In this document: positions 12,001 through 14,391 of the stretch, piece after piece | Numbering within the stretch: the first letter of the stretch is position 1 | How the letters are laid out: each line of letters opens with the position of its first letter | DNA from: a candidate division WOR-3 bacterium | Lineage (GTDB): Bacteria; Hydrothermota; Hydrothermia; JBDRYB01 | DNA length: 14,391 nt | Reading direction: 5' to 3' | Assembly: GCA_049969615.1 (NCBI GenBank) | Contig: JBMFOM010000048.1 | Location: 1-14,391, forward strand | Position numbers: made by a program

Positions 12001-14391
12001 GAGAAAGATTAGCTATGATTATGTCCTTGCGGACCTTGAGGACCTCCTGTGCAAACCACAGCGGGAACGTGTCGTTGTCGCCGTTCGTGAACATAACCCC
12101 GCTGGTTGAGGGGCTGATCAGAAGGTTATAAGCCGAGTCCTCGGCCAGGTAGAACCGAGAACGGTTGCACTCAGGGTAGAACTTATAGAACTGGTAGCCA
12201 ACCACAAAAGCCCCTACGGGATAGAACACCAGGGCAACCACCCACCACTTCCTGAGATAATGTCCCGCGAGCCGAAGAACCTCCCAGAGTCCTATGCCCG
12301 CGTAGAGGCATATCATTATGTGCGCTGTCGCGTAGAAGTAATCCCTGTCCCTCACCTCTGTCGGAAGAAGCGGTTCACCGGTTGCCGGGTGGGCCCCGCC
12401 AACGGGTTGGGTCGGTGAGTCCTTTAGGTTAAAAGCGAACCAGAAGCCGATTGTTGATAGGATGAAAACTACGCCTAGAAGCCAGATGACCCTTGTCCTG
12501 TTCGGGGATTTCTTTGAGAAGTCGTTGAAAACCTGGGTGACTATACCGACCAACGAGAGGAAAACCAGAGGAATGATGCTGAAATACTGCCACTGGAAAT
12601 ACCTGAAGAAGACCCTCACCTGCAGGATGGGATCTATTCTGCGTGGGAGCATCTTGGCTGGCTCGTATTGCTTTCTGGTCAGGACATCCATGAAGGCATG
12701 CCAGTTGTAGGGGTCTGCCTCGTTGATCCAGGCCGCGGTCGGGTGATAATGCAGATAATACGCCCTAACTATGAGCCAGAACTCCAGGGAGACAGCCAGG
12801 ATGATGAGGAGAAGGGTTAGACCCCTCCAATCACTCCAGAGCCTCCCGCGGATATACATCATCACTATGGAAAGCAGGCCACCAACCACAAGAGCAGAGT
12901 TGTTCTTGCCGAATATGCCGTATATCAGCGCGACGCTGGCGGCCGCGAAGAGTATTGTCCAGACATCAGTGAAGTCCTTGAAGAATCCGGCGTGCCAGAA
13001 ATAGAATACCATGAGTGTGAGACCTATGATCACTATCACTTTGCTCGTTATTGAGGACTGATAGGTCAGCTCCATGAGGCCAGCGAGGAGAACCAGCGCG
13101 CCAAGGAGGCCCCAGAATTCCTTCCCGAATATGAGCTTGGGCTGGACTATTGCCACGAATATGAACATTGCCGGCAGGGCAAAAATAGCCGTGAGGTGGA
13201 TTCCGGTGGCCAGAACGATGAGATATGTGCCGGCGAGTAGGAACCTGGTTGCATGTTCGTCCCACCTGTTTCTGCGATACCAAAGGAGGGTGAGGTAAAC
13301 CGCCAGGAGCGCGAAGAAGTTGGCCGGGGTGTATGTCTCGGCCTCTATTGAGTTCATCCAGTTAACCGCGCCAAAAGCGGCCATGAAAGCGGCGAAGGCC
13401 GCGGCAACATGCAAGATGTGGCGTGGGGCCTGTGGCTTCCAGAGGGATATTGTGTCGTAGATTATCAGGTAAACTAGGCCAGCGGCAAAAGCGCCCATGA
13501 CTATGGGCACGAAGGTCATCCTGAGGACGGATTCAACCGCGGGAACGCCATTGATCATCTTATAGAAGAAGGCGAGGGGTAGGGGCAGGATGTCAAAGAA
13601 CTTGCAGAGAATTACATACAGGGGGGTTCCAGGGGGGTGCGGCACGCCGAGGATGTGAGCCGCGGCTAGAAACTCACCGACATCCCAGAACACCACTGAA
13701 GGCGCGGTTGTCTGAAAATAAACCACGAAGACGACAAAGGTTATCAGCGCAAACAGGACCCACTTTAAATTTTCTCCAACAAACCAAAACCTCAGCCTTT
13801 CGTTCATGACTAAATTCTAAACCAGCCGAATATGGCTGGGCAAATAGCGCGACCGCGGGGGTTCCGGCTTTACAACCCAGATTGGGGTTGTCTCGCGACA
13901 AAACCCTGAAAAATCCCGGTTTGTCCTTCAATCCCGTCTTGGAACTTCATCATGCGTGAGTTTTAGGGAGCAGAAGATGAACGGCTTCGCAGGGAGCCTT
14001 CGCCCTAAGGTGGGAAGGGAGGAATTGCATGGGGAGATTAATGGGGATCAAGTGTTTGATCCTGCGCAGAAAGTGGGTTATAATTTTCGCTCCGGCCCCA
14101 TCGTCTAGCGGATAGGACACCACTCTTTCAAGGTGGCGGTGGGGGTTCAACTCCCCCTGGGGCCATAAAGGTTGGATGACAAGCAAAAATGAAAGCGGGG
14201 GAACCCCCGCTTGGTTGCTCATCGCAAAAATCAGCTAGGGAGACCTCTGATCATATACCCCATATACAGATGGCAGGCCATGGATCTTCTCCGACCACAA
14301 AGGGAGATGAACTCCACAGAACCGGGATACCGGGATTGTCTCTCCTGGATAGGCCGGGAACCATCGGTTGTCGTGGTTGAAGGAAGAGGCA

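Follow-up and report, generated by a model that had tools for sequence, protein, structure and literature searches.

Promoters set 8–14 nt before most tRNA genes of a candidate division WOR-3 bacterium predict 5′ leaders of a few nucleotides or none

The window, the whole 14,391-nt stretch of DNA analysed here, comes from a genome assembled in 203 contigs (2.06 Mb). It carries a tRNA-Glu gene with a promoter directly upstream, and the features relevant to this arrangement are as follows.

363–392, plus strand: degenerate copy of the promoter cassette, ending in TATAAT (387–392)
13805–13843, minus strand: promoter of a divergent 1060-aa gene, TTGCCC-18-TAGAAT, with the ATG at 13807–13805
14056–14084, plus strand: one copy of the 29-nt promoter cassette, running from the −35 hexamer through the 17-bp spacer to the −10 hexamer; 1 mismatch versus TTGATCCTGCGCAGGAAGTGGGTTATAAT
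14056–14061, plus strand: −35 hexamer TTGATC of the tRNA-Glu promoter, 17-bp spacer to the −10 hexamer
14079–14084, plus strand: −10 hexamer TATAAT of the tRNA-Glu promoter
14085–14093, plus strand: 9-nt gap between the −10 box and nucleotide 1 of tRNA-Glu, tttcgcTCC
14094–14165, plus strand: tRNA-Glu, anticodon UUC; ARAGORN and Infernal agree (model positions 1–71)
14193–14212, no strand assigned: G+C-rich hairpin 27 nt 3′ of tRNA-Glu, with its T-run on the minus strand

The tRNA-Glu promoter, TTGATC-17-TATAAT, matches the consensus at 10 of 12 positions. Hereafter, +n denotes the nth nucleotide downstream of the end of the −10 box. In the tRNA-Glu gap, only pyrimidines occupy +7 to +9; from +7 onward, the first purine is G1 of the tRNA, at +10. 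Judged from these letters, the gap would comprise the discriminator plus a leader of 0–3 nt. The gene encodes no 3′ CCA. At best, the hairpin downstream could act on the tRNA-Glu transcript as a bidirectional terminator, since its T-run sits on the minus strand.

The divergent gene encodes a TMEM260-like mannosyltransferase with TPR repeats (Pfam), and its ATG lies 6 nt past the −10 box, which is a leaderless-mRNA arrangement. The intergenic space flanking tRNA-Glu spans approximately 280 nt (13808–14093). A 521-aa ORF is listed from position 363, and the in-frame ATG at 405 is its likelier start. The window also encodes a 374-aa protein that matches no Pfam family; its top matches (62–64% identity) are in genomes labelled Candidatus Hydrothermota/Hydrothermia, a mere hint at an affiliation with the WOR-3 group. 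When the tRNA-Glu locus was aligned with those of two same-genus genomes, the correspondence was confined to the tRNA, the −10 box and the 9-nt spacing between them. Because the upstream neighbours differ between these genomes, the alignment does not demonstrate an in-place swap of an older promoter for the cassette.

The same arrangement recurs throughout the genome, in which ARAGORN identified 43 tRNA genes and one tmRNA gene. An earlier note had cautioned that ARAGORN 5′ ends might be off by one base; indeed, for 14 of the 43 tRNA genes they had been placed 1 nt too far 5′. The ends were corrected by acceptor-stem pairing and then agreed with those of Infernal RF00005 for all 43 genes. Under a strict rule (TAnnnT with at least five of six matches, the box ending 8–14 nt before nucleotide 1), 31 of 43 tRNA genes have a −10 box, versus 242 of 20,000 random positions (1.2%). 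A looser rule, which additionally allows CATAAT, gives 33 of 43 versus 350 of 20,000 (1.75%), and exact TATAAT is found at this distance in 25 of 43 versus 36 of 20,000 (0.18%). Hence, the count of 33 in 43 put forward previously is reproduced, and the enrichment persists after end correction. Among the 38 tRNA genes that do not lie behind another tRNA, 33 have such a box under the looser rule; five tRNAs lie behind another tRNA, and three further ones have no nearby box. A weak TATCCT box was seen by eye 9 nt upstream of tRNA-Ile; this gene is not an rRNA-spacer tRNA, as no rRNA occurs within positions 1–4000 of its contig (C23).

The distances are narrow. For the 31 strict-rule genes they are 8 nt (eight genes), 9 nt (nine), 10 nt (five), 11 nt (four), 12 nt (four) and 14 nt (one), so that 30 of 31 fall within 8–12 nt. 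The earlier note had given a range of 7–14 nt with a mode of 9; the mode stands, while the corrected ends shift the range to 8–14 nt. A spacing of 6–7 nt was found at 0 of 33 tRNA promoters in this genome and at 0 of 33 in its sister species. A −35 TTG precedes the −10 box by 16–18 bp in 26 of 33 promoters here and in 19 of 33 in the sister species.

Comparison with relatives shows that the spacing is conserved per tRNA. Across 32 tRNA pairs shared with the sister species (G002), the distance is identical in 20 and within 1 nt in 31, while just 3–21 of 29 upstream promoter bases are identical in these pairs. The earlier note had compared a single tRNA in relatives, tRNA-Lys. The gene for tRNA-Lys(UUU) was seen with enough flanking sequence in 23 genomes, the window's own included; in 20 of them a strict −10 box ends 8–14 nt before it, which agrees with the spacing claimed earlier for the relatives. 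The trait grades off across the class and phylum, and the background rate of such boxes was 0.5–4.6% in all genomes tested. The relatives all have small genomes (1.4–2.4 Mb). In Escherichia coli, the sole outgroup, 5 of 37 first or solo tRNA genes have a strict box at 8–14 nt, with a minimum of 10 nt, a count that is a lower bound because the strict rule misses weak E. coli boxes.

The 29-nt cassette is present in 79 copies at up to three mismatches in this genome, and no copy was found in the 30 relatives searched. It precedes 11 tRNA genes at up to five mismatches, the number reported before, and 12 at up to seven. The cassette also stands upstream of ORFs, where the start codon follows the −10 hexamer by 6 nt in 44 of 123 copies and by 7 nt in 13 of 123. 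ORFs placed 6 nt past the hexamer leave no room for a ribosome-binding site. Such predicted leaderless mRNAs driven by the cassette would calibrate the start site. Similarly, around the 1092 exact TATAAT sites of the genome, ORF starts are most frequent at distances of 6 nt (145) and 7 nt (55), which places the usual transcription start at +7/+8. Several hundred mRNAs are predicted to be leaderless. Where an ORF begins 8 nt past the cassette −10, +7 and +8 are both pyrimidines in 10 of 11 cases; genome-wide, the same holds for 31 of 47 ORFs at 8 nt, versus approximately 29% at control distances. Late transcription starts thus look usable in this genome. At 9 nt (start at +10), the all-pyrimidine excess is weak (23 of 79).

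The tRNA promoters share a distinct signature downstream of the −10 box. Position +7 is C in 26 of 33 promoters in this genome and in 31 of 33 in the sister species, with C-to-T ratios of 26 to 5 and 31 to 1, respectively, and both species have a pyrimidine at +8 in 31 of 33. Purines occur at +7 and at +8 in 2 of 33 promoters each in this genome. The first purine falls at +9 or +10 in 26 of 33 and 25 of 33, respectively, and tRNAs with longer spacing regain purines at +9/+10, not solely at nucleotide 1. By comparison, position −1 of the tRNA is T in only 17 of 33 and 16 of 33. The signature is tied to the −10 box and not to the tRNA. The discriminators open with TT or AT: here, T or A occupies +1 in 31 of 33 promoters, and T occupies +2 in 30 of 33. 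G is scarce at leader positions −1, −2 and −3 (3, 4 and 1 of 33). The same signature is found at the proximal 16S promoter (TATAAT-attcac-CCT-A, approximately 82 nt ahead of the 16S start) and at the tmRNA promoter (TATTAT-ataggc-CTT-A). In other class members, the first purine lies at +7/+8: 22 of 24 promoters in G005, 13 of 19 in G008 and 13 of 14 in G051. At rrnB P1 of E. coli, pyrimidines stand just ahead of a late start, and the genus-specific signature suggests a late start of this type.

The boxes behave as promoters: they are accompanied by a −35 TTG, the cassette drives apparently leaderless ORFs, and the spacing is conserved over diverging sequence. From this it follows that leaders should be approximately 0–8 nt. 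The proposed explanation, near-touching tRNA promoters combined with a late start, is probable as a whole. Its firmest component is that each tRNA gene, or short tRNA pair, very probably forms its own unit, driven separately by a housekeeping sigma-70-type promoter so close that the leader would be a few nucleotides or none. With pyrimidines at +7/+8, RNA polymerase would start late, at the first purine (+9 or +10), and the late-start promoters would be those of tRNAs, tmRNA and, proximally, 16S rRNA. In the 16–17 tRNAs with a −10 box 8–9 nt upstream, that purine is nucleotide 1, and the transcript would have no leader and a 5′ triphosphate; the remaining tRNAs would receive leaders of 1–5 nt. 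We regard it as an even question whether the stable-RNA promoters of the genus do start late in the manner of rrnB P1 and thereby yield leaderless tRNAs in the 8–9 nt class. Somewhat more tentatively, about half of the genus's tRNAs may be transcribed exactly from nucleotide 1, leaderless and 5′-triphosphorylated, bypassing an RNase P that would be kept for other tRNAs and tmRNA. The arrangement would be part of a genome-wide habit of setting promoters at the functional 5′ end.

A rival reading keeps the same promoters and fixes the start at the C of +7, with pyrimidine-rich pppC-U leaders of 2–8 nt (mode 2–3), all trimmed by RNase P and none absent. It is a serious contender that we rate a little below even. 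The usual start set by the leaderless mRNAs is likewise +7, and a near-invariant C there (26 of 33 and 31 of 33) is expected of a fixed initiating nucleotide. The marked bias toward C rather than T is sharper than a general pyrimidine requirement and could reflect a CTP-initiated transcript from +7. None of the 33 promoters sits closer than 8 nt, as if at least two leader nucleotides were required; the absence of 6–7 nt spacing is in line with such a minimum, and the scarcity of G at −1 to −3 with leaders kept from base-pairing to the 3′ end. Both the RNase P RNA and rnpA are, moreover, intact as far as assembled. Against a fixed +7 start, purines are nearly excluded from +7/+8 (2 of 33 each); RNA polymerases generally favour purine starts, and G005, G008 and G051 do have purines there. 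In addition, the signature recurs at the promoters of 16S rRNA and tmRNA, which have no short leader to preserve, and purines return at +9/+10 in longer-spacing tRNAs rather than at nucleotide 1 alone. The first-purine rule makes nucleotide 1 the predicted start in 16–17 of 33 tRNAs, and a fixed +7 start does so in none. Several observations count against the late start itself: a 6–7 nt spacing (G1 at +7/+8) would be the simplest route to leaderless tRNAs, yet it occurs at 0 of 33 promoters in both species; the +10 start needed by the 9-nt class exceeds the rrnB P1 precedent; and the TT/AT-initial discriminators are unlike the G+C-rich one of rrnB P1.

Two further explanations would deprive the spacing of its meaning for processing. 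In one, close spacing simply reflects genome compaction (short intergenic regions in genomes of 1.4–2.4 Mb), and leader length or processing is not selected. The small genomes of all relatives, the graded distribution across the phylum and the same promoter-at-5′-end habit among mRNAs would be in keeping with it. We nevertheless consider it unlikely, given that the distances are very narrow (8–12 nt in 30 of 31) and within 1 nt per tRNA between species, that compaction alone leaves the purine exclusion at +7/+8 unexplained, and that with approximately 280 nt around tRNA-Glu space is not limiting. In the other, the boxes are by-products of a repeated or mobile cassette and of A+T-rich DNA, and the true promoters lie farther upstream and produce ordinary leaders. 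The cassette is a species-specific repeat, as its 79 copies here and none in 30 relatives indicate, and some copies have a defective −10, e.g., TATAAC before the 16S gene. However, it accounts for only 12 of 33 boxes, and the sister species, which lacks it, still has a box at 8–14 nt in 31 of 38 first or solo tRNAs. With a per-tRNA conserved spacing, a background of only 0.5–4.6% and a −35 TTG in 26 of 33, the by-product explanation is highly improbable.

The preferred explanation, near-touching promoters with a late start, resembles several known systems. For E. coli monocistronic tRNAs, passages of two reports give leaders of 3–4 nt for pheU/pheV, 5 nt for serT, 5–7 nt for proK/proL, 6–8 nt for asnT-W and 7 nt for thrU, and state that pre-tRNAs with leaders shorter than 8 nt can be aminoacylated unprocessed (PMC7049720, PMC12439589). 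The first-purine rule reproduces the published leaders of thrU (7 nt) and serT (5 nt) and by eye also fits pheU/V (3) and proK (5). The likeness lies in an adjacent sigma-70 promoter, leaders of a few nucleotides (predicted here) and the presence of RNase P. In E. coli, however, short leaders are found in a minority of genes and many tRNA genes are in operons, whereas here the arrangement covers 33 of 38 genes, most often at 8–9 nt and with genus-specific pyrimidines at +7/+8. It is therefore not new in kind but an extreme variant of the short leaders published for E. coli (3–8 nt). At rrnB P1, transcription starts 9 nt past the −10 box with open-complex scrunching, as described in part of PMC7822876. 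Both are stable-RNA promoters, and the late start established at rrnB P1 is proposed here from a sequence signature; they differ in the discriminator, G+C-rich at rrnB P1 and TT/AT-initial here, and in the +10 start needed for the 9-nt class.

The original 2008 report on Nanoarchaeum equitans is said to describe tRNA promoters at a fixed distance, and a short, narrow promoter–tRNA distance (here 8–14 nt) is the point of likeness. Its tRNAs are leaderless, with transcription beginning at the mature 5′ end, according to a passage of PMC10100707. N. equitans is, however, an archaeon with archaeal promoters that has lost RNase P, whereas RNase P RNA and rnpA are kept here and leaderless tRNAs would make up no more than about half of the set. 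Leaderless mRNAs of Deinococcus deserti and Actinobacteria show the same pattern: the start codon lies approximately 6 nt past a −10 box, and transcription begins on that codon (portions of PMC4007540). That pattern is strong in this genome; those reports concern mRNAs, and the tRNA passages of PMC4007540, PMC3848588 and PMC4681348 make no statement on tRNA leader length. A literature search returned no description of genome-wide near-leaderless tRNA genes in a bacterium, and in the WOR-3 literature searched, the words tRNA, promoter, leaderless and RNase P are absent.

The presence of RNase P, also claimed earlier, is borne out. Its class A RNA, which lies at a contig end and is represented by the 3′ 215 of the model's 367 positions, scores 129 bits versus a gathering score of 100, and rnpA scores 64.5 bits versus a cut-off of 22.3 in an open 114-aa frame. 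This is no paradox, because five tRNAs lie behind another tRNA, three have no box and several implied leaders are 2–5 nt long. A 5′ leader of at least 1 nt is certain for the five tRNAs behind another tRNA and the three without a close box. Under the late-start explanation, the enzyme would still be needed for these two sets, for tRNA-His, whose G−1 is encoded, and for tRNAs with a pyrimidine at nucleotide 1. Mature bacterial tRNAs normally have a 5′ monophosphate, which counts against tRNAs born with a triphosphate. Triphosphate 5′ ends hinder RNase P, and its protein subunit contacts leader positions around −4 to −8. Pairing of the leader with the tRNA 3′ end also hinders the enzyme, as stated in part of PMC9433436.

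The arrangement raises the questions of how RNase P handles leaders of 0–3 nt with a triphosphate end, whether triphosphorylated tRNAs are used in bacterial translation, and whether late, scrunched starts occur at stable-RNA promoters outside Proteobacteria. Experiments are feasible, since strain sy37 of a related class is in culture (PMC12285271, in part). This lineage would show how far leaders can shrink while RNase P stays. RNase P is considered almost universal, since tRNAs are synthesized with 5′ leaders; to our knowledge, the sole well-known escape is an archaeon that starts at tRNA nucleotide 1 and lost the enzyme. The arrangement described here could be an intermediate toward RNase P independence.

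ARAGORN finds one tRNA gene in the window, tRNA-Glu(UUC), which lacks an encoded CCA. Its promoter is a copy of the cassette, the 29-nt promoter repeat of this genome, and only nine nucleotides (tttcgctcc) separate the −10 box from G1.

363–392: degenerate cassette copy
13807–13805 (−): ATG of a divergent 1060-aa gene, a TMEM260-like mannosyltransferase with TPR repeats
14056–14084 (+): cassette copy, the tRNA-Glu promoter
14056–14061 (+): −35 hexamer TTGATC, upstream of tRNA-Glu
14079–14084 (+): −10 hexamer TATAAT, 17 bp from TTGATC
14094–14165 (+): tRNA-Glu(UUC), with identical ends in ARAGORN and the Rfam tRNA model (model positions 1–71)
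14193–14212: G+C-rich hairpin 3' of tRNA-Glu, its T-run on the opposite strand

An ORF listed at 13950–14222 (−) overlaps the tRNA and is spurious. TAGAAT (13819–13814) lies exactly 6 nt ahead of the ATG of the 1060-aa gene, the layout of a leaderless mRNA. Elsewhere in the window, a 374-aa protein (9501–10625, −) lacks any Pfam match at E ≤1e-5 and has relatives of 50–64% identity across many phyla, including Zixibacteria, Poribacteria, Armatimonadota and Bacillota. Short repeat modules occur at 13896–13925 and in many other intergenic regions of the genome, upstream of cassette copies and in one orientation or the other; ...CCGGGATTTTTCAGGGGTTT... and ...GGTCTCCCCAAATAC... are examples, and they give the intergenic DNA a modular look.

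The whole genome (G000; 2.06 Mb, 203 contigs, 54% G+C; the window is contig C48) contains 43 tRNA genes and one tmRNA gene by ARAGORN. Since the ARAGORN 5' end was one base too long in 14 genes, nt 1, the mature 5' end, was reset by acceptor-stem and T-arm pairing, and it then equaled the Infernal start in 43 of 43. Boxes ending 8–14 nt before nt 1 were counted, with 20,000 random positions as the control.

Genes with a −10 box 8–14 nt before nt 1
Strict rule (TAnnnT, at least 5/6 matches): 31/43 tRNA genes; random 242/20,000
Looser rule (CATAAT also allowed): 33/43 tRNA genes; random 350/20,000
Exact TATAAT: 25/43 tRNA genes; random 36/20,000

The looser rule thus reproduces the close promoters that the earlier note had reported at 33 of 43 genes. 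The range of 7–14 nt given there becomes 8–14 nt once nt 1 is reset. Under the strict rule the distance is 8 nt in 8 genes, 9 in 9, 10 in 5, 11 in 4, 12 in 4 and 14 in 1, and none of these genes shows a 6- or 7-nt spacing. Because five of the ten box-less genes (Thr-GGU, Tyr, Gly-CCC, Val-GAC and Trp) sit 3–90 nt behind a same-strand tRNA, 33 of 38 independent genes fit the pattern. tRNA-Ile and tRNA-Val-UAC have weaker boxes, judged by eye, and no box was found near Arg-CCG, Arg-CCU or Ser-UGA. In 26 of the 33 promoters, TTG lies 16–18 bp upstream of the −10 box.

Leaderless mRNAs offer a calibration of the start site. Of the cassette copies, 123 keep an intact −10 box; 44 of these are followed at 6 nt by the start of an ORF of 60 codons or more, 13 at 7 nt and 10 at 8 nt. 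When all 1092 TATAAT sites are taken together, the starts of long ORFs form sharp peaks at 6 nt (145) and 7 nt (55). Likewise, an ATG or GTG opening at least 100 codons follows a strict −10 box at 6 nt in 226 cases and at 7 nt in 88, against roughly 20–40 cases at each control distance. Such mRNAs must be leaderless, because there is no room for a ribosome-binding site, and they are very common in G000. On this calibration, the usual polymerase start would be +7/+8, counted downstream from the end of the −10 box.

When the tRNA promoters are aligned on the −10 box, +7 proves to be C in 26/33 promoters of G000 and 31/33 of its sister species G002, with a pyrimidine at +8 in 31/33 in each; when they are aligned on the tRNA, T occupies position −1 in just 17/33 and 16/33. 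From +7 onward, the first purine falls on +9/+10 in 26/33 and 25/33, respectively. It falls on +7/+8 in 22/24 promoters of G005, 13/19 of G008 (both members of the class) and 13/14 of G051, from another class of the phylum; the pyrimidine signature is therefore genus-specific. It recurs at the tmRNA promoter and at the proximal 16S promoter (TTGATC-17-TATAAT-attcacCCTA, pyrimidine run +7 to +9), which ends some 82 nt ahead of the 16S gene; both sites are free of the tRNA 5'-end constraint. Two promoters precede the 16S gene (G000:C2:48181–48340; L381 1251–1410), the distal one being a cassette copy whose −10 box is defective (TATAAC) and which ends about 214 nt upstream. Where an ORF begins 8 nt after the box, both +7 and +8 are pyrimidines in 10 of 11 cassette cases and 31 of 47 genome-wide, compared with about 29% at control distances. 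It looks as if the polymerase would skip ahead to the first purine. This rule reproduces E. coli leader lengths given in excerpts of PMC7049720 and PMC12439589 (thrU and serT scored; pheU/V and proK by eye), and at the E. coli promoter rrnB P1 scrunching places the start 9 nt beyond the −10 box, according to an excerpt of PMC7822876. The leaders so predicted for G000 would be 0 nt in 16–17 tRNAs, 1 nt in 2, 2 nt in 6, 3 nt in 4, 4 nt in 3 and 5 nt in 1. Alternatively, transcription may begin at a fixed +7, with leaders of 2–8 nt (mode 2–3) trimmed by RNase P. Several features count against a late start: the 6–7 nt spacing of the mRNAs is never found at tRNAs, position +7 strongly favors C over T, a start at +10 exceeds known precedent, and the discriminators are A+T-rich on their 5' side. 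Given the points on either side, we consider the two start models about equally probable; under either, the tRNA leaders would be very short.

RNase P, which the earlier note had reported as nevertheless present, was recovered as the 3' 215 model positions of its RNA, which score 129 bits and lie where contig C21 ends, and as rnpA, an open 114-aa frame on C68. The rnpA gene (4325–4630, region 3940–4630) lies directly downstream of tRNA-Val(CAC)–tRNA-Val(GAC) on the same strand and may be co-transcribed with these two RNase P substrates. Among the 43 tRNA genes, that for tRNA-Cys alone has its 3' CCA encoded; therefore, 3' processing and a CCA-adding enzyme must serve nearly all tRNAs.

The spacing extends to relatives, scored for first or solo tRNA genes with a strict box at 8–14 nt.

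Boxes in relatives and in E. coli, the sole outgroup genome
G002, sister species: 31/38 with box, mode 9; all 43 tRNAs seen
G005, class member: 22/35; all 46 tRNAs seen
G008, class member: 14/28; 34/45 tRNAs seen
G016, class member: 10/27; 32/46 tRNAs seen
G051, another class of the phylum: 12/25; 35/47 tRNAs seen
E. coli K-12: 5/37, none closer than 10 nt; a lower bound, as the rule misses weak E. coli boxes

The local box background across these genomes is 0.5–4.6%, and tRNA operons are more frequent in the other classes. The tRNA-Lys(UUU) box, whose spacing had been described in relatives, is present in 20 of 23 genomes (a count that includes G000), and that of tRNA-Glu(UUC) in 16 of 30. 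For 32 orthologous tRNAs of G000 and G002, the spacing matches exactly in 20 and differs by at most 1 nt in 31, while promoter identity upstream of the −10 box is only 3–21 of 29 bases; the spacing itself thus looks selected. G002 also carries a second, partial tRNA-Lys(UUU) copy (C3:79835–79881; positions 27–73 only, 96% identity). Such 3' tRNA halves often flag the distal boundary of integrated elements.

Twelve tRNA promoters are copies of the cassette TTGATCCTGCGCAGGAAGTGGGTTATAAT, 11 of them at ≤5 mismatches, the number originally counted. G000 holds 79 copies at ≤3 mismatches and 169 at ≤7. The cassette drives tRNAs and leaderless mRNAs and also precedes the 16S gene; about 20 further bases on the 5' side are also conserved, and the spacer contains the palindrome CCTGCGCAGG. 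A search of 30 relatives, two of them congeneric (86% and 95% complete), gave no copy at ≤3 mismatches; the cassette is a whole promoter that has spread recently and in this species only. Its first half (TTTGATCCTGCGCAGG) is very similar to the start of the organism's own 16S rRNA (TTTGATCCTGGCTCAGG; L381, G000:C2, 1498–1519), with ten consecutive identical bases, which may be coincidence. Many contigs (C11, C15, C55, C73, C119, C158; C49, C126, C136, C138, C147) open with one of two identical repeat ends, both finishing GGATCAC. The gap between this end and a cassette copy downstream of it is mostly from a few to some 20 nt, and reaches as much as about 150 nt in C11, C49, C126 and C158; of 156 cassette copies, 24 are no more than 300 nt from a contig end. 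The pattern suggests that long repeats, perhaps insertion sequences, adjoin the cassette and break the assembly.

Excerpts of PMC7049720 and PMC12439589 give E. coli leaders of 3–4 nt (pheU/V), 5 (serT), 5–7 (proK/L) and 7 (thrU), and report that pre-tRNAs with leaders <8 nt are aminoacylated upon RNase P inactivation; Nanoarchaeum equitans has fully leaderless tRNAs and no RNase P, according to an excerpt of PMC10100707. Unlike the latter, G000 is bacterial and keeps RNase P; compared with E. coli, its pattern spans nearly the whole tRNA set, with a spacing tighter than in any E. coli gene scored. The arrangement is thus intermediate between the two. No published genome-wide pattern of this kind in bacteria was found in the literature covered, which is incomplete and includes two WOR-3 papers. 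New here are the leaderless-mRNA calibration, the conservation of spacing, the genus-specific +7/+8 signature and the species-specific spread of the cassette. Collectively, the earlier observation is confirmed and its interpretation supported: the tRNA layout of G000 is an extreme form of an already known arrangement, of moderate interest now and of high interest if the tRNAs prove to be truly leaderless.
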